A DNA stretch of 13,791 nt, from IMG/VR virus record IMGVR_UViG_2690316105_000002, positions 1 to 13,791 of that record. One strand, 5' to 3'. The notes under the pieces were generated by a model that had not been told where the DNA came from, did not search any database, and saw nothing but the letters and a program-made list of their open reading frames with translations. The DNA is from a virus (Duplodnaviria; Heunggongvirae; Uroviricota; Caudoviricetes). Both the position numbers and the translations under genes were made by a program. Below, one piece after another: positions 1 through 12,850 of the stretch. How positions within the stretch are numbered: the first letter of the stretch is position 1; the number at the start of each line of letters is the position of its first letter.

Positions 1-53
1 GGGAAAAATATCATCAGATGGCTGCTTAAAAAAAGAACAAATGGTAGTGTCCG

Positions 54-1643
54 CTATTGCCAGTACACCTCAGTTCGCTCCTCCGGTTCGCTGTTCTGGT
101 GCTGTTTATCTTCAGTCTGTCGCACTTTATTTTCCGTTTTTTTGACTTCATTTGAGGAGATATGATGACCGGGAATCCATTTCGAATCATTCGGGTCGCT
201 AATCCCTTCAACAAATTCTCCGCGAGAGGCAGCCAGTAATTTGTCTGCATCGACAGGATTTTTGGGCGGAATGTTTTTCCGGGCTTCATGGAGTTCTGTC
301 CGCAGTTTCTGATATTTCGCATCAACAGCATTTACCTGTGACTGAGCATCCAGCGGCTGCGTGTCCTGATGATGTTCAGTTGCATCCGGTTCCACTGTTT
401 CAGCCGTTGCCTGTTCATCTGCCATTGCGCAAGATGGTTGCGGTTTTTCTTCATCATCCTGTTTTCCTTCTTCTGTTACACGCTGCGGCATCGGGGCAGA
501 GGAGCGACCGCAGGCAATATCCACGATTTCCGGATCAGGGTTGGCATGATCGGTTTCAGTCAGTACCTTGTTCAGATATTCAGTGACGTGCGCGGGGATG
601 ACCTCGATCCCAATTGGTGCTTCTTTTACGGACGCAACCACGATGGCGCGGGAATAATCCAGCCCGCCAGGCATGGTGATGAATTTGTCGCGGAAAACAG
701 AAAAGGGCGGTTTATTTTCAGCGATAATTTCCTCAATGCGTTTAGCGTGTGCCGGATGAAGGTTATAGATGTCCAGATCCATTGAACGGGCCAGTACGCC
801 AGTGGCTACGTCGCGCGCCAGTGACGTCAGATCGTGTACGAAACCTTCGCCGCGATCGGTGAGGTTTCCGCCGCCAGCATTAGCACCGGAAGCCGTGCGA
901 GTGATGTGTGAAACACGATTACCCTTCATCCACTCTTTTGTCAGCAGTCCTCGATCGGTGTAGTCAGCGTTCAGGTATGCTTCGAAAAAAGCAGTTATCA
1001 GTCCCAGGCTTGAATTACCAGGATTAGGGAAAACTTTGTCAGTGTCACGAACCAGTTTGTGGAGATCGCGAATTTCCAGCGGGTCGAGCAGGCTGGTTTT
1101 GTGGGAAACAGCCAGGGCAGTAACAGCCGGTAGTTCTTCAGCCCGAGCAATGTGTAATGCCTGGAGTCCGTCGCGTGAAACGTGCGTTACCGGTTTTTCG
1201 CTGCCGTGTTGAGCAAGCCAGCGAATGGGCAGTTCCTGACCGGAAACTGGCAGGAGCATGTTCTCCTCAATTTCTGTCATGTCTTCGCCGTTGACGTTGG
1301 TATTGTCAGTGCTGGCTGGTTTGTCCTGAACAGAGGGAGAAGATGCGATAAATACCATTGTGATGCCATCTTCCCCGCCTTTTTCGTAACGGTTGCAGAA
1401 TTCCGTATCAAACACGCCTTCTGGTGGGAGGTCATCAACAACGGGCAAATTGACGCGAACAGGTTTTTTAAAGTCATCTTCATCGTAGCCAGCATCGTCA
1501 ATCGCAACAGCACCACGGGAGATGGCAATGGATAATTTTTTCGCTTCAGCCCAGTAAAAACCGCCTTTAATACCGAGGCGTTTTCTTACTTTGTCATTTT
1601 TTGCTTCGTAATACAGTGGGTAAACTTGTTTATCGGTGCTCAT
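54..1643 (-). CDS. hypothetical phage early-left-operon protein, 529 aa, with acidic low-complexity C-terminal tail; family not assignable by eye
   Basis: Longest ORF in the window; last of four tightly spaced minus-strand genes (23-nt gap to the upstream ORF); protein-like composition. No recognisable catalytic motif found. Confidence 0.6.
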
Positions 1644-1666
1644 TGTTTTTTAACCTCAACTCATAT

Positions 1667-1963
1667 TCAGATTGCATAAAAGAAACGAACTGATGATGCG
1701 ATATGAGAGAGTTCTTTCAGTCGTTGATAACTGATACCGTATTTCTTGTCAGCCTCTTCAATGCGAGCTGTGAGTAATGCAATTCCTTTAATGGCACATA
1801 CACAACAATCAAATGTTCCCAGAACGTAACCGTCATCAATAATTACCGTGACGTTTTCTTTTTGGGAAATCTGAATGAAACTATGTAATGTATTCCCACA
1901 TTTAAATTCGGCGAGAGAATCGTTAATAACATCAAGTTCAATTTCACATTCAATAATGCTCAT
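1667..1963 (-). CDS. hypothetical small protein, 98 aa, AT-rich gene
   Basis: ORF track 1667..2011; the internal ATG at 1963 is preceded by an AAGGAA Shine-Dalgarno on the minus strand, whereas the 2011 start has none. AT-rich relative to flanks. Confidence 0.5.
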   Translation of the reverse strand: MSIIECEIELDVINDSLAEFKCGNTLHSFIQISQKENVTVIIDDGYVLGTFDCCVCAIKGIALLTARIEEADKKYGISYQRLKELSHIASSVRFFYAI

Positions 1964-2037
1964 TGCTGTTTCCTTTTTTAAGGTTGAGTGAATCCCTGCC
2001 ATTGCTGGCATAAATTCAGATTCGAATATTCAGTTAA

Positions 2038-2319
2038 TTAAAGTTCGTGTGCCATCTTGTCTTTTTCGGCACAAGCTGCACTGCAATATTTTCGTTTCTT
2101 TCTGGCAATCATGTTTCCATGCATATAAATAAGCTCGCCAGTAAAAGCTTTTTCAGGTAAAAACTGTTTATTGCAGAGATGGTAATCACATTGTATTAAA
2201 TCCGGGTCACCTTTTTGCTGGAGAATTTTTCTGATTCTCCACAGCCATTTTTTAATCCCGGTATGACTGATGGTCTGCCTGAGGGCAGGTGTAAAACAAT
2301 AATCAAGCATGGGGTTCAT
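2038..2319 (-). CDS. hypothetical small Cys/His-containing protein, about 93 aa (alternative start 2325)
   Basis: ORF track 2038..2325; GGAG lies 8 nt upstream of the ATG at 2319 but only 2 nt from the ATG at 2325. Paired Cys spacings (C-x4-C and C-x3-C) suggest a possible zinc ribbon. AT-rich. Confidence 0.5.
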   Translation of the reverse strand: MNPMLDYCFTPALRQTISHTGIKKWLWRIRKILQQKGDPDLIQCDYHLCNKQFLPEKAFTGELIYMHGNMIARKKRKYCSAACAEKDKMAHEL

Positions 2320-2335
2320 ATCCATAGCTCCATTT

Positions 2336-2890
2336 TTATTTTAAGGAAAGCAACTGCTCTACGGTCATGTTTTTAATTGCGCCCCGGTTAACAAGAGTCC
2401 ATCCCTGTTTTTCCAGATAAAACCGGAAAGTCTCCAGGGTACAGACCAGTGCGCCATCAGGAACGGTTTCGGTGAATTCGACATTGCCGAATTTGTCGAA
2501 GTGAACAACCAGAGTGCGACCATCACCCGGAATCATCTTGTCAGCAGGTGGGGTGTTATTCTGGCGCAGTTCGGCCTCCATGCGGTCGAACTCAGCAATG
2601 TAGGCTTCCTTGAATGCGGCGGCTTTTTTGCCAGTGAAGCCCATCACCAGGAAAACGAAGCCGTTTTTGGTGATTTGGTACATGGGGAGTTTGCGTCCGG
2701 TTGAGTCGGTATATTCGCTCGACACAAAATTGTGCCCAGTGAATTTTGCTGAACAGTCCAGATTGCGAATTTTATCCAGCACTCGTTCATGGCGCTTGCC
2801 AAAGAACTCTGCGATTGCAACAGACGTAGTGACAGCGCGACCATTTTCGATGGTTACGTCAGGGTGAGAAAGGGCAGGGATAGTAGCCAT
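2336..2890 (-). CDS. rha: Rha-family phage regulatory protein
   Basis: N-terminal segment VTTSVAIAEFFGKRHERVLDKIRNL matches the conserved Rha-domain core as recalled; AAGGAGG Shine-Dalgarno 8 nt upstream of the ATG at 2890. Confidence 0.75.
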   Translation of the reverse strand: MATIPALSHPDVTIENGRAVTTSVAIAEFFGKRHERVLDKIRNLDCSAKFTGHNFVSSEYTDSTGRKLPMYQITKNGFVFLVMGFTGKKAAAFKEAYIAEFDRMEAELRQNNTPPADKMIPGDGRTLVVHFDKFGNVEFTETVPDGALVCTLETFRFYLEKQGWTLVNRGAIKNMTVEQLLSLK

Positions 2891-3155
2891 TTTAGTGGCC
2901 TCCTTAACTGTTTTAGTCTGCGATTACCAGTTAGTAGCTGGTGATCGGGTGTCAACTAGAGCCAGTTAAGAAGCTCCGGGCATATTCCCCTTACGGGTAT
3001 TGTATTACGCCTCTCCACCCGATCTTTGTACGGATGTGCCGTATTTCAGGCATAAAAAAGCCGCAAGGCTATCGGGTGCGGATGACCGCTTAACTGTTTC
3101 TAGTGCGATCATCTTGCAACAATGCAGGTTGCTTTGTCAATATCCCGGATATCAG

Positions 3156-3190
3156 AAAGCAAAAACCCCTGAACTGGTGGGGACAGGGGC
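3156..3190 (-). terminator. rho-independent terminator downstream of the toxin gene
   Basis: Minus-strand hairpin CAGGGG / CCCCTG (plus 3166..3171 and 3184..3189) followed by a T-tract (plus-strand A5 at 3161..3165), just 3' of the ORF ending at 3210. Confidence 0.6.
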
Positions 3191-3209
3191 GCTACTAAAT
3201 GTGTAATTG

Positions 3210-3530
3210 CTAAACTCTGATCAATCGTCTGAACAGTAACTGTTTAATATCCTGACGTTGGGAAAGAATCACGTGTGCAGTGATAATATCCTCCTCGACA
3301 GAGTACAGCACTCTGTAGCCTTCTGGTGTGTTGCACTCTCTGTATTTAGCCACGCCAAGCTTGAGCAACTCCGGGCATAACTGACATCCGGACGGGAATG
3401 CAGTAACTCTTGTTTCAAATCGCTCAAGAATTTCTGCTATTACAGGGCGTGGGTCAATGTCGTTACTCCGGAGATGGTCGGCAATTTGCTCAAGGCTTGT
3501 TCTGGCGGTAAGTGTGTATTCAACCTGCAT
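3210..3530 (-). CDS. parE: type II toxin, RelE/ParE superfamily (ParE-like), 106 aa
   Basis: Size and C-terminal pattern (GYRVLYSVEEDIITAHVILSQRQD) typical of ParE/RelE-fold toxins; starts 8 nt after the stop of a Phd/YefM-like ORF. Confidence 0.7.
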   Translation of the reverse strand: MQVEYTLTARTSLEQIADHLRSNDIDPRPVIAEILERFETRVTAFPSGCQLCPELLKLGVAKYRECNTPEGYRVLYSVEEDIITAHVILSQRQDIKQLLFRRLIRV

Positions 3531-3538
3531 AGTTAACC

Positions 3539-3772
3539 TTAGTTGTTAAAGCTATCCAGCAACTGTGCTTTTGAAAACACGCGACCTTCAGACTTGTCGT
3601 TTTCTGAAATAGTGAGAAGTTTCAGTAACGCAATAGCGTTCTCGCGTTCCTGTTGCTGCTCATAGGATTCAATTACGTATGCAGGAACACCATTCTGCGT
3701 GACAAGAATGGGTTCCGCCAGGTCCAGTGAGGCTGCGTTTTTCTTGATGTAGCTGATAGTTTCTATTTTCAT
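3539..3772 (-). CDS. phd: type II antitoxin, Phd/YefM family, 77 aa
   Basis: Small ORF directly upstream of the toxin; N-terminal region (ILVTQNGVPAYVIESYEQQQEREN) resembles Phd/YefM antitoxins; AAGGAA Shine-Dalgarno upstream of the ATG. Confidence 0.65.
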   Translation of the reverse strand: MKIETISYIKKNAASLDLAEPILVTQNGVPAYVIESYEQQQERENAIALLKLLTISENDKSEGRVFSKAQLLDSFNN

Positions 3773-3832
3773 ATGGGTGTTCCTTTTTTCATTGGGAGTT
3801 ATAATTTAGTCTGAATTTAGTTTTCTCGCAAG
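3773..3832 (-). promoter_or_regulatory. candidate promoter/operator of the phd-parE operon
   Basis: Minus strand reads TTGCGA-N17-TAAATT upstream of the phd ribosome-binding site, with tandem ACTAAATT direct repeats that could be the autoregulatory operator. Confidence 0.3.
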
Positions 3833-4173
3833 TGGCGGAAGCCGCCAGTTTGGTTTGTTCAAAAAGTCACATCCCGACCCTGCGTTCCGGTTCTGCGGAT
3901 ATATCAGGGCATTCGGCGGCACCCCGAATTGTGGTTTACGTGACAGCCCGGTTCATATTGTTAAAGAGCGGCGGATTTCAGGTGTGGAAATCCCCTGCAC
4001 GAATAACGGTTAATTCGCGCATAATTAATTAAATAAATTTTGTTGATGCGGTGCCTGGTGCCTCCAGGTGACGTTAACCAGTTAACAATTAACGCCGGAA
4101 TAAGGGATTTTCCTTACTGTTTTAACTGTTCCGCGTGCGCTCAGCCGCATTCACCGCATCACAAAATTCACTT

Positions 4174-4235
4174 TAAAAAGGGCGGCAGAGCAAAACTGAT
4201 GCCGCCAAAAGTTTCATCGCCAACAACTCAATCTG
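4174..4235 (-). ncRNA. dicF: candidate DicF-like small RNA (3' end defined by an intrinsic terminator)
   Basis: Minus strand ends ...UUUUGGCGGCAUCAGUUUUGCUCUGCCGCCCUUUUU: a GGCGGCA/TGCCGCC stem plus U-tract resembling the DicF 3' end as recalled. Sits downstream of the ydfABC-like ORFs, as DicF does in Qin. A 10-bp inverted repeat (4248..4257 with 4277..4286) lies just 5'. Confidence 0.4.
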
Positions 4236-4536
4236 GAGATGTTGTGGCGGGTTGTCACTTAATCGTATGGTCAACCTGACAACCCGGTGGACATTTGCGA
4301 GGAACGGAGAAACCCCGCCATACTTACCGCCGCGCCATTTCGCGGATTGCCACAACCGGAAGCGCACGGTCGGCGAAAATTTAACGACAGGCTATCTATG
4401 ACCAGCTACCTCGCCGTGCGCTTTCGTGTTGTGTGCCTGCTTTTAACCACGTCAGGCGAGGTGGTTCCTGTTATTCCCCAACAACAAGAAATTTGTATAA
4501 TCTGAATACCCCAACAATAAGAAGAGTGAGCAAGTG

Positions 4537-5004
4537 ATGTTTGATCTATCATTAGCGATGTCAGCTCTCAAAGAGACTGCATCAATGTTAAAATTATTCA
4601 ATGAAGCAAAAACTCAGGCTGAGGTTGATCGCGCTGTGTCTGAAATAAACTCTAAGTTGTCAAGCATTCAGCTTGAATATTTGTCTCTCATTGATGAGCT
4701 GACAATCTCTAAAAGCAATGAGGCTGCGCTCAAAGCAAAACTCACGGAGATAGAAAAGTTTAAGTTCCAAAGTGAAGACTGCGAACCTCGCCAATTGATT
4801 ACTGGAACGATTGTGTATGCCAGACAGTGCAATACTAGCTCTGGCAAGATTACCATGTATTTTTGTCCAGAATGTTTTGCGAAGAGAGCAATATCTATAT
4901 TGCAACCTTTCCCTATCGAGGAAGGCGATAAATATACGAAAACTCAATGTCCCTCCTGTAAAAATGAGTATCTCATGGACTACAATTTCAATAATGATTT
5001 TTGA
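4537..5004 (+). CDS. hypothetical coiled-coil protein with C-terminal four-Cys zinc-ribbon motif (CPEC...CPSC), 155 aa
   Basis: Clean ORF with GAG-containing ribosome-binding site and its own -10 (TATAAT at 4496..4501); strongly AT-rich versus flanks; opposite orientation to the surrounding left operon. Confidence 0.6.
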   Translation: MFDLSLAMSALKETASMLKLFNEAKTQAEVDRAVSEINSKLSSIQLEYLSLIDELTISKSNEAALKAKLTEIEKFKFQSEDCEPRQLITGTIVYARQCNTSSGKITMYFCPECFAKRAISILQPFPIEEGDKYTKTQCPSCKNEYLMDYNFNNDF

Positions 5005-5823: not shown

Positions 5824-6213
5824 TTATTTTTGACGCGTTGCTGGGTCAACGTATTCTGAATAAAATTCAGTCAGTTTTTGAAGTCGCATTTGAAAAGCTG
5901 CAAGCATATTTCTGCGTTCTACAGGTGGCAGATTTCTGTAAACATCAAGCAGGGCTTTCTCATCATCATCAAGTGTCTCTCTATTGCTATCTTCTTTTCC
6001 TGTCAGCAACCAGGAAAGGGATACGTTTGTAGCTTCTGCAATTTTTGCCGCGGAATCTTTACTGATTGTTCCTCTTTTTTTCCATGCGTTAACTGACGAG
6101 CGACCTACACCAGCGATACGCGCTAAATCTGAACCGCTTAAGTGATGCTGTTGCGAGATCGTATCTAACCTTTCTGCCAGCGGGGTGTCGTATTGCTTTT
6201 TTCTCATGTCCAT
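5824..6213 (-). CDS. prophage repressor, HTH (XRE-type), DicA/CI-like, 129 aa, no peptidase domain
   Basis: Helix-turn-helix segment (SGSDLARIAGVGRSSVNAWKKRG); divergent from a Cro-like gene; followed by a terminator and the left-operon promoter. Too short for a LexA-like autocleavage domain. Confidence 0.8.
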   Translation of the reverse strand: MDMRKKQYDTPLAERLDTISQQHHLSGSDLARIAGVGRSSVNAWKKRGTISKDSAAKIAEATNVSLSWLLTGKEDSNRETLDDDEKALLDVYRNLPPVERRNMLAAFQMRLQKLTEFYSEYVDPATRQK

Positions 6214-6295
6214 TTGGCAATTATAACCGTTCAGTGAACACTAACAATTTCTCAGGGTGTTGACTTACGTTCTTTTTAAGTGAACAATTGTTGTG
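6214..6295. promoter_or_regulatory. divergent PRM-like / PR-like promoters with operators
   Basis: PR-like (plus): TTGACT 6260..6265, 17 nt, AACAAT 6283..6288, with operator GTTCTTTTTAAGTGAAC at 6269..6285. PRM-like (minus): TTGTTA, 16 nt, TATAAT (plus 6220..6225) ending 7 nt before the repressor ATG. Extra palindrome GTTCAGTGAAC at 6229..6239. Confidence 0.6.
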
Positions 6296-6317
6296 TTTGA
6301 TTGAAGTGGAGGATTGT

Positions 6318-6593
6318 ATGACTGCTTTGGATAAAGCAATAAAGATTGCTGGTGGTATTCGCCCGTTAGGGCGCGCAATAGGGGCCTGGCCGTCCCAAAT
6401 ACACAAATGGGTAAATGAATACCATGGTCGAGTGCCGACAGGAGAACGAGTTCGCCAAATTTACCTTGCAACTGGGGTTACTCCTCATGAGTTGCGGCCA
6501 GATTTGTACCCCAACCCAACCGACGGTTTACCTGTTGGATGTAAGGCTAGCACACAAAATTCACGGGGGATGATTCATGAAAATCAGGCATGA
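6318..6593 (+). CDS. Cro-like HTH regulator (YdaS-like), 91 aa
   Basis: GGAGGA Shine-Dalgarno 4 nt before the ATG at 6318 (the track's TTG start at 6288 is less likely); first gene of the right operon. Confidence 0.7.
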   Translation: MTALDKAIKIAGGIRPLGRAIGAWPSQIHKWVNEYHGRVPTGERVRQIYLATGVTPHELRPDLYPNPTDGLPVGCKASTQNSRGMIHENQA

Positions 6594-6999
6594 GCACATC
6601 GAATCAGTGTTGTTAGCCCTGGCAGCCGAAAAAGGGCAGGCGTGGGTTGCCAACGCACTGACTGAAGAATATCTGCGCCAGGGGGGAGGTGAATTGTCTC
6701 TGACACCAGGCAAGGACTGGAATAATCAGCAGAACATCTATCATCGTTGGTTAAAAGGTGAAACGAAAGCGCAAAGGGAAAAAATTCAGAAACTGATCCC
6801 TGCGGTTCTGGCAATTCTTCCGCGTGAGCTGCGTCACCGACTCTGTATCTTCGATACCCTGGAACGCCGTGCATTACTGGCGGCGCAGGAAGCGTTGAGT
6901 ACGGCAATTGATGCGCATGATGACGCAGTTCAGGCCGTTTACCGGAAAGCACATTTCAGCGGTGGTGGGTCGTCCGACGATTCTGTCGTTGTGCATTGA
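6577..6999 (+). CDS. CII-like / YdaT-like protein, 140 aa
   Basis: Overlaps the Cro-like gene by 17 nt; GGGGGA ribosome-binding site; size and position match YdaT-family proteins as recalled. Confidence 0.6.
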   Translation: MKIRHEHIESVLLALAAEKGQAWVANALTEEYLRQGGGELSLTPGKDWNNQQNIYHRWLKGETKAQREKIQKLIPAVLAILPRELRHRLCIFDTLERRALLAAQEALSTAIDAHDDAVQAVYRKAHFSGGGSSDDSVVVH

Positions 7000-12425: not shown

Positions 12426-12601
12426 TGCAGCGGGTGCTTGAGGCTATCTGTCTCAGGCATGAACACCAAAAGGCAGATAGAGAAAAGCCCCAGTTAACAT
12501 TACGCGTCCGGCAAGACGCTTAACATTAAGCTGAGGCTCAATCCATGCTGAACACATGTAGGTTAGCCTCTTACGTGCCGAAAGGCAAGGAGAAGCAGGC
12601 T

Positions 12602-12757
12602 ATGAAGCAGCAAAAGGCGATGTTAATCGCCCTGATCGTCATCTGTTTAACCGTCATAGCGACGGCACTGGTAACGAGGAAAGACCTCTGTGAGGTACGA
12701 ATCCGAACCGGCCAGACGGAGGTCGCTGTCTTCGTAGACTACGAATCTAGAGAGTAA
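12602..12757 (+). CDS. hok: Hok/Gef-family type I toxin, 51 aa
   Basis: MKQQKAMLIALIVICLTVIATALVTRKDLCEVRIRTGQTEVAVFVDYESRE: membrane helix followed by the conserved LVTRKDLCEV-RIRTGQTEVAVF core of Hok/Gef toxins as recalled; long structured leader and 3' UTR; in-frame upstream ATG at 12545. Confidence 0.85.
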   Translation: MKQQKAMLIALIVICLTVIATALVTRKDLCEVRIRTGQTEVAVFVDYESRE

Positions 12758-12828
12758 GAGTGACCAGGCGAGGGAGAAATCCCTCGCCACCTCTGATGTG
12801 TCAGGCATCCTCAACGCACCCGCACTTA

Positions 12829-12850
12829 ACCCGCTTCGGCGGGTTTTTTG
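12829..12850 (+). terminator. rho-independent terminator of the hok transcript
   Basis: CCCGC-TTCG-GCGGG hairpin with UUCG tetraloop followed by TTTTTT (12844..12849). Confidence 0.75.

Follow-up and report, generated by a model that had tools for sequence, protein, structure and literature searches.

A probable c4-like RNA leader upstream of rha, and a recE cut by IS600, among the early-left genes of a Rac/Qin-like prophage

Among the closest described counterparts of the locus reported here are the anti-immunity loci of phages P1 and P7 (immI, c4-icd-ant), N15 (immA, CA RNA-icd-antA/antB), and P4 (CI RNA), all of which have the same layout: a promoter, an upstream target, a hairpin, an RNA of ~80-90 nt, and a second target at the ribosome-binding site (RBS) of the antirepressor operon. 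In P1 immI, the annotated order is promoter, a1, b1, c4 RNA, a2, b2, icd, and ant, and in N15 (annotation and Rfam) it is c4-a1b1, a hairpin annotated as 'putative rho-independent terminator', C4, and the antirepressor operon. This layout was also found in front of the gene rha in a stretch of 13,791 bp, which is the whole contig CXET01000115.1 (assembly GCA_001249235.1) and is called the window below. The source draft genome is an IS600-rich Escherichia/Shigella. The segment at 54-2890 is very probably part of the early-left operon of a lambdoid prophage of the Rac/Qin type, mosaic in its make-up. In it, rha, a YdaE-family gene, a phrog_2434 gene, and a recE cut by the insertion sequence (IS) IS600 follow one another, with rha under probable c4-like RNA control. 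The antisense RNA that probably gates rha lies just upstream of the segment and is the sole noteworthy extra at the locus.

The rha leader takes up ~250 bp (2891-3140), and all elements described for it are on the minus strand. It starts with a promoter-like site at 3111-3140 (TTGACA, 18 nt, CAAGAT), which is also where the conserved part of the leader begins. The upstream target copy, CACUAGAAACAGUUAAG (3089-3105), is a direct repeat of the sequence preceding the Shine-Dalgarno (SD) motif, like a1/b1 in P1, with CAGTTAAG at 3096-3089 repeated at 2910-2903. A hairpin followed by a U-run (CCGCA...UGCGG-CUUUUUU) was located at 3054-3081; it can alternatively pair with the upstream GCGG and is a possible attenuator. 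Positions 2935-3024 matched the Rfam covariance model of the small RNA (sRNA) sRNA-Xcc1 (RF02221) over its entire length (model positions 1-87 of 87) with 67.4 bits against a gathering threshold of 53 (E=3e-12); 45 nt separate the end of the match from the rha ATG. The spacer RNA folded far better than shuffled controls (z=-4.7), and the minimum free energy fold of the element reproduced the three-helix structure. The loop of the third helix (P3) reads CUUAACUG at 2970-2963, and the closing stem is followed by a 3' tail, ACCA. A perfect 8-nt complement of this loop, CAGUUAAG, is found at 2910-2903 (target site a2, feature 2899-2910), with the second copy at 3096-3089. The target site overlaps the SD of rha, AAGGAGG (2905-2899), which stands 8 nt 5' of the rha ATG. 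A consensus scan called neither the leader promoter nor the long-loop hairpins.

From TTGACA (3140) to AAGGAGG, the leader shares ~85% identity with that of antB in Shiga toxin (Stx) phage P13374 and in ~100 other phage records. The homology to P13374 begins at this TTGACA, and the -10 sequence there is CATACT. The antB gene encodes an AntA/AntB antirepressor (PF08346), and its coding sequence is unrelated to rha (PF09669). Viral contigs were then scanned with the exact 23-nt invariant core AATACAATACCCGNAAGGGGAATA, which gave at least 120 loci (L009-L129). The first open reading frame (ORF) mostly began 80-100 nt past the core. Among the Pfam matches listed for 106 distinct ORFs immediately 3' of the core, Bro-N was found in 30 proteins, KilA-N in 23, P22_AR_N in 21, AntA in 12, and Rha in eight, so ~90% of the downstream genes are antirepressor-class.

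In 66 aligned non-redundant leaders, the order was variable sequence, hairpin and U-run, Xcc1 RNA, ACC(A/C) tail, the variable sequence again (here abutting GGAG), and start codon. The hairpin corresponding to 3054-3081 was kept in nearly all 66 leader clusters, and the variable loop of the third helix was complementary to the repeated variable sequence. Complementarity was scored in 57 leaders as the longest contiguous run, comparing each locus with itself and with the other loci. Between the loop and the SD-proximal 19 nt, it averaged 6.25 nt in the own locus vs 3.84 nt in other loci (p=1e-26), and between the loop and the upstream region 6.84 nt vs 4.88 nt (p=3e-26). The direct repeat between the upstream and pre-ATG regions measured 7.44 nt vs 5.76 nt (p=2e-18). 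The pairing segments were highly diverse (52 distinct in 57 leaders), and a second, less variable complementarity, typically UUUCGAA vs UUCGAAA, was seen a few nt away. The three helices co-varied in 61 sequences: 84% of the cells were paired, compared with 30-53% when the partners were slid, and 190 double-change cells were counted vs 74 in shuffles, with the observed score reached by 0 of 500 shuffles. For this count, the structure was specified by hand and the pairs were counted; RNAalifold on a MAFFT alignment recovered part of it only, owing to misalignment. ViennaRNA duplexfold returned implausibly extended duplexes on long segments, and its comparison with shuffles (3/500, 0/500) is taken as weak support only, the weight being placed on the contiguous runs given above.

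Previously, sRNA-Xcc1 has been reported to precede an ORF6N gene in APSE phages and symE in integron cassettes of Xanthomonas, and the literature presents it as a virulence-linked sRNA that is carried by integrons and acts in trans. In the accessible parts of the literature searched for the term, no published link to c4 or antirepressor control was found, and where 'C4 antisense' was co-mentioned, the two were apparently separate annotation matches. On balance, and with moderate confidence, sRNA-Xcc1 may be an unrecognised branch of the c4/CA/CI anti-immunity RNAs. It would be a co-transcribed and processed antisense RNA whose hypervariable loop would occlude the RBS of the next antirepressor-class gene (Bro-N, KilA-N, AntA, P22-Ant, Rha, ORF6N, and possibly symE in Xanthomonas), with a duplicate site upstream and dozens of specificities. 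At the present locus, it would gate rha and so act as the induction or anti-immunity switch of a Rac-like prophage with a repressor unable to cleave itself.

The gene under this putative control, rha (2336-2890, minus strand), encodes a 184-aa Rha-domain DNA-binding regulator of the antirepressor class. Its Phage_pRha domain is complete (PF09669, 106.5 bits, E=1.1e-30, profile positions 1-90 of 91), TIGR02681 matched with 107 bits vs a cutoff of 46 (NCBIfam), and PHROG anti-repressor families matched with E=8.5e-31 and 9e-20. The protein equals residues 100-283 (91% identity) of a 283-aa protein with Ash (PF10554) and Rha domains in sibling prophages, which are integrated at the yebY and ttcA sites of Escherichia coli. 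In the window and in the sibling VL40, the sequence 5' of the Rha ATG is wholly unlike that of the other siblings and consists of a 319-bp spacer followed by a toxin-antitoxin pair, Phd/YefM antitoxin (3539-3772) and ParE/RelE toxin (3210-3530), both on the minus strand. The pair is present in VL40 and absent from the other siblings; together with the Xcc1-type rha leader, it takes the place of the Ash-domain 5' part, and the upstream sequence, of the siblings' Ash+Rha gene. Reading Phd/ParE and Xcc1 as an integron-type cassette was considered and set aside with no search made for attC sites or an integron integrase; the leader homology favours phage antirepressor loci.

The immunity repressor of the window (5824-6213, minus strand) is a 129-aa protein of the RacR/DicA type, with YdaS-like and YdaT-like genes divergent from it at 6288-6999. 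It matched PF07022 (E=1.4e-12) and HTH_3, and the DicA subfamily with 38.9 bits, below the cutoff. An earlier note on this DNA, made by a model from the sequence, had stated that the repressor lacks an autocleavage domain, and this was borne out: the protein has a helix-turn-helix (HTH)/CI region only, and no Peptidase_S24 match was obtained with Pfam. A search for LexA boxes (CTGT-N8-ACAG, at most one mismatch) returned 7 sites vs 4.7 expected, none of them in 2891-3209; SOS control of the Gifsy type is therefore not indicated for rha.

The following course of events is proposed. The promoter at 3140-3111 would drive the leader, possibly with added read-through from the early-left promoter region near 5758-5730. 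The ydaE-like gene, the phrog_2434 gene, and the recE remnant are close behind rha and would probably be co-transcribed with it by upstream read-through. An RNA of ~90 nt would be excised from the transcript; by analogy with c4, RNase P is a candidate for this step, and the closing stem and ACCA fit its substrates. Pairing of the variable loop with the SD-proximal site would block translation of rha. The upstream copy abuts a GCGG able to pair with CCGC; pairing with the RNA may free CCGC, allow the CCGCA/UGCGG-U6 hairpin to form, and lead to termination, which is the way the CA and CI RNAs work. The outcome would be a lysogen in which Rha is off and the specificity of immunity is defined; once made, Rha would antagonise the 129-aa HTH-only repressor. 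If Rha does act on this non-cleavable repressor, the prophage would have a second, RNA-based layer of immunity control. More broadly, if this reading of sRNA-Xcc1 is true, its matches in Xanthomonas, Xylella, APSE, and enterobacterial prophages would call for reinterpretation as immunity switches of phages or mobile elements rather than as virulence sRNAs, and the loop/target pairs would make up a sequence-readable immunity code for many prophages with non-cleavable repressors.

At the other end of the segment is the 529-aa ORF (54-1643, minus strand), which the earlier note could not assign to any family. It proved to be the front part of recE, here recE'. The protein matched PF06630 (Enterobacterial exodeoxyribonuclease VIII; E=5.7e-38, Pfam), phrog_607 (E=1.9e-224, profile positions 1-485 of 883, PHROGs), and the NCBIfam exodeoxyribonuclease VIII equivalog NF007259 (positions 1-524 of 877), the last with 983 bits, less than the full-length cutoff of 1269. 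It is 82% identical to residues 50-498 of K-12 RecE (866 aa) and near-identical from ~105 to ~480. The acidic stretch described earlier is present, at residues ~385-470 of the ORF. The window copy thus holds the initial ~1.57 kb of recE, coding for RecE residues 1 to about 523-524 (the non-catalytic N-terminal region and the acidic linker), six further codons, and a stop. Homology to E. coli recE ends at window position 73 in all matches, and the 72 nt beyond it (positions 1-72) agree at every position (100% identity) with the end of the IS600 copy annotated in E. coli 2014C-3051. These are the terminal 72 bp of IS600 (IS3-family; 1-72, plus strand), with the terminal TG at 72-71 on the minus strand, and they form both the end of the contig and the point at which recE is cut. 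Since they are IS600, the last six codons (T-E-V-Y-W-Q) and the stop are derived from the IS and are no natural gene end. The contig break falls inside IS600, 72 bp in, as is usual for draft assemblies. The PD-(D/E)XK nuclease domain, which makes up the last ~260 residues of K-12 RecE (~606-866), is absent, and a PDB sequence search with the 529-aa protein gave no match to the RecE nuclease domain; its loss explains why no nuclease motifs had been seen. The product therefore cannot act as exonuclease VIII, and the copy of the recombination module in the window is dead. In E. coli 2014C-3051 (L005 2873-5903), IS600 sits elsewhere in recE, with the PD-(D/E)XK part and recT kept on the far side; the disruption of recE by IS600 has thus occurred more than once.

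Two small genes, both on the minus strand, are placed between rha and recE'. The first (2038-2319) encodes a YdaE-family zinc-binding protein of 93 aa, Cys/His-rich as had been noted, with an N-terminal extension of ~43 aa; the longest ORF (2038-2325) has 95 aa. GGAG is found 9 nt 5' of the ATG at 2319. Residues 44-95 of the YdaE-like protein matched NF041288 YdaE_coli (NCBIfam; 85.3 bits vs a cutoff of 35), and phrog_6751 matched over the full length (PHROGs; E=1.2e-45). The identity is 56% to K-12 YdaE and 46% to Gifsy-1 STM2630. The second gene (1667-1963) encodes a 98-aa phrog_2434 protein of unknown function (PHROGs; E=3.3e-40) and occupies the slot of racC in Rac. Its longest ORF, 1667-2011, would give 114 aa, the RefSeq start; this ATG at 2011 has no SD, and the ATG at 1963 is preceded by AAGGA at 7 nt.

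The phrog_2434-type family is small: 16 close relatives were found, and a search of 1.84 billion representatives gave 37 clusters at E<=1e-3. Homologues with 33-37% identity stand directly 5' of full-length recE-recT in Gifsy-1 (STM2631) and HK225 (HK225_036, gp36), and in both they are preceded by a ~52-aa protein (STM2630 and gp37, the latter called similar to STM2630 by the HK225 annotators). An AlphaFold2 model of the 98-aa protein (pLDDT, the predicted local distance difference test, 86.3) has five beta-strands and then two helices, and no significant fold match was obtained for it. The sequence had no Pfam, NCBIfam, PADLOC, or PDB match and no similarity to K-12 RacC (BLASTP E=7.8). The RefSeq name given to the 98/114-aa protein by the Prokaryotic Genome Annotation Pipeline (PGAP), 'DNA breaking-rejoining protein' (WP_249530514/WP_249530515), is unsupported by domain, profile, or fold evidence. 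A 2733-aa protein (P0018) was judged a spurious relative: it consists of ~25 near-identical ~90-aa repeats and matched profile positions 18-55 of the 98-aa family 25 times (E=5e-17), most likely an artefact of adding up numerous weak repeat matches. As Rac, Gifsy-1, and HK225 all carry a YdaE-like gene, a small gene, and then recE, this triad is, on sequence comparison, a conserved feature of RecET-type early-left operons.

When window 1-3200 was compared by megablast with 5,426 complete E. coli genomes, at least 80% of it was covered in 10. In those 10, the PGAP labels read 'RecE family exodeoxyribonuclease | Rha family | DNA breaking-rejoining/hypothetical protein | YdaE family protein', and the RefSeq annotation of E. 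coli prophages at yebY and ttcA shows all four genes side by side. The cluster is thus not novel; it is a routine prophage segment with existing annotation in RefSeq genomes. The pair of small genes is complete in just 10 genomes, and the ydaE 3' end with the downstream spacer occurs in ~455. Some prophages have recE, the small gene, and ydaE without Rha, and in others this Rha stands beside DUF1482 and dicB. Rha is exchanged independently of the ydaE/small-gene/recE triad and thus assorts as a module of its own; the four genes do not make up a single functional unit.

The leader and the gene behind it can also be explained without any regulation: rha would be a decayed remnant that lost its Ash domain when Phd/ParE was inserted, and sRNA-Xcc1 an independent trans-acting sRNA or a passenger. 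The 283-aa Ash+Rha protein of the siblings speaks for this, as do the treatment of sRNA-Xcc1 in the literature as trans-acting and virulence-linked and the PGAP call of the identical VL40 arrangement as an Rha pseudogene, 'missing N-terminus'. That call belongs with several further observations that weigh against a c4-like switch. The -10 hexamer is weak and the site at 3111-3140 is below the thresholds of the consensus scan, so that the promoter is an inferred one; the 184-aa protein looks like an antirepressor by prediction, from annotation-level links (PHROG families and a leader common to Ant-type genes); and the sample of at least 120 loci was selected by the exact 23-nt core with a heuristic ORF call. 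The Rfam models C4 (RF01695) and c4-a1b1 (RF03163), which match P1 and N15 strongly, gave no match in 2860-3130 at E<=10, and sRNA-Xcc1 is outside the Rfam C4 clan, so the tie between Xcc1 and c4 is architectural and not a shown homology. Unlike in P1 and N15, no icd-like ORF is present between the RNA and rha, and the target therefore overlaps the SD of the regulator gene itself. Decay of rha is nevertheless improbable. The junction is exactly at the ATG, the perfect AAGGAGG in front of it is part of the conserved leader, and the Rha domain is intact. The leader precedes ~100 intact antirepressor-class genes at a fixed distance of ~45 nt, and its loop co-varies with the SD region of each gene, which a passenger sequence would not do. 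Gating of rha by the Xcc1 RNA is thus the reading retained.

The remaining alternatives concern the genes downstream of the leader. The RecE-N protein might be a functional stand-alone gene of this prophage lineage, partnering a Gam and AAA_24 ATPase module, with IS600 having taken only a dispensable tail. In the siblings, the RecE-N ORF has 591 aa and is 98% identical to the window copy; in place of recT and the 3' end of recE, it is followed by Gam, AAA_24 ATPase, DUF1187, xis, and int (e.g. L002 3357-5571 and L004 4357-6571, from E. coli FDAARGOS_943 and CFSAN029787). It is intact in ~10 complete E. coli genomes at two att sites (yebY, ttcA), always with Gam, AAA_24 ATPase, and DUF1187 downstream, and the window ORF is open across 523 RecE codons. 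Zheng et al. (2025, PMC12315714) also note nuclease-less 'RecE-2' proteins, with a role unknown, among the Rec modules of lambdoid phages. However, PGAP flags all the 591-aa ORFs as pseudogene/partial, 'missing C-terminus', the high identity might just reflect a recent event, and the window ORF has lost ~67 more codons to IS600, the contig breaking off before any downstream partner gene. VL40 also keeps a separate 98-aa 'exodeoxyribonuclease VIII' fragment adjoining Gam, which suggests a scar of deletion or replacement. A stand-alone role is hence unlikely, though less so than the decay of rha. The earlier note points to a further reading, in which the four genes are one acquired defence or induction module round a novel 529-aa protein, with AT-rich small genes as recent cargo. 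The four genes do lie packed on the minus strand, as the note had described (ORFs 2336-2890, 2038-2325, 1667-2011, and 54-1643), and the repressor without a cleavage domain and the mosaic junctions round the cluster, at 73, ~2092, and 2890, fit with such a view. The gaps of 10 to 26 nt given for them apply to the longest-ORF starts; the quoted lengths of 93 and 98 aa belong to the SD-supported starts, which leave 16, 74, and 23 nt between the genes. The low GC content is likewise real (98-aa gene, 0.36; 93-aa gene, 0.39; rha and the main part of the 529-aa ORF, 0.49-0.51). However, racC (0.39) and ydaE (0.37) of K-12, both 5' of recE at 0.49, are equally AT-rich, so the bias is typical of this slot and does not mark recent cargo. 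No PADLOC-DB component hidden Markov model matched the four proteins or the neighbouring proteins at E<=0.01, which leaves the proposed accessory defence role without backing, and PDB sequence searches with all four proteins gave nothing useful. An antirepressor-type induction role can be kept for rha alone, on evidence from the leader, outside the coordinates first described, and not for the other three genes. The note had named, as what would speak against it, a homology of the 529-aa protein to a routine phage function with the small ORFs not conserved alongside; the protein does belong to the RecE family, but the small ORFs regularly accompany recE in Rac, Gifsy-1, and HK225. The genes do occur together, yet Rha assorts independently of the other three. 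A single acquired module is therefore largely refuted by the homology results and has only a very slight chance of being correct. A false lead is thereby removed, the 'unassignable' protein being an IS-truncated RecE in a standard, already annotated cluster, and the mosaic early-left segment remains the preferred reading.

Further features were seen elsewhere in the window. Between the Phd/YefM gene and position 4533, 760 bp of the minus strand (3773-4533), downstream of ydfB/ydfC-like genes, contain no convincing ORF; sub-threshold Rfam matches to STnc100 (38.9 bits, gathering 47) and DicF (27.9 bits, gathering 48) lie within 4009-4216 (minus strand), and a decayed dicF locus from an operon of the Qin/Rac type is the probable explanation. 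At 4534-5004 (plus strand), a 156-aa ORF faces the early-left genes. It matched phrog_1244 (function unknown), with weak zinc-ribbon matches, has the position and orientation of sieB in Rac, and is a candidate superinfection-exclusion or moron gene. An Rfam match to the sok antitoxin (118.7 bits) at 12432-12607 (plus strand) overlaps a 70-aa membrane-like ORF at 12545-12757, which suggests a type I toxin-antitoxin system of the hok/sok type, and a sub-threshold isrK match (31 bits) was found at 12768-12849 (plus strand).

Among known prophages, Rac of K-12 (kilR-ydaE-racC-recE-recT) has its genes oriented in the same way with respect to a RacR-type repressor, from which ydaS/ydaT-like genes diverge, and it shares with the window a YdaE-family gene (56%), a small AT-rich gene, and then recE (82% over residues 50-498). 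The window differs in having phrog_2434 instead of racC and rha instead of kilR, in the 43-aa N-terminal extension of its YdaE, and in its IS600-cut recE, and it ends before any recT. Gifsy-1 (STM2630-STM2631-recE-recT) and HK225 (gp37-gp36-RecE-RecT) have in common with it the triad of a YdaE-like zinc protein, a phrog_2434 homologue, and recE; the protein identities to the window are only 33-46%, their RecE is full-length and followed by RecT, and no rha is directly upstream. The RecE-2 proteins resemble recE' in being nuclease-less RecE relatives in an early-left operon. They are described as no more than distant relatives of Rac RecE (Zheng et al. 2025, PMC12315714), whereas the window ORF is ~98-100% identical to it over long stretches; as this ORF ends in an IS, truncation is the simpler reading.

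For the leader, a close relative by sequence is the antB locus near int/xis in Stx phages such as P13374, TL-2011c, and phi191, where a leader of ~215-250 bp, Xcc1 element included, shows ~85% identity between the -35 box and the SD; loop and target differ, with CUUUGAAG in place of the CUUAACUG of the window. In comparison with P1, N15, and P4, the putatively regulated protein of the window has a Rha domain, unlike in those modules. The middle hairpin of Xcc1 has a strictly conserved core, AAUACAAUACCCGNAAGGGGAAUA, without a counterpart in C4. The Rfam C4 consensus is otherwise built in the same way as the Xcc1 element, from a closing stem, a small hairpin, a variable-loop hairpin, a junction, and a 3' ACC tail, and the window RNA has the closing stem, the two internal hairpins, and the ACCA tail in a three-helix fold that co-varies. 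As in the c4 type, its loop is complementary to a site at the RBS, and a second copy of that site is present upstream of the RNA. Variable loops set the specificity of c4-type RNAs, and they would do the same for the RNA in front of rha.

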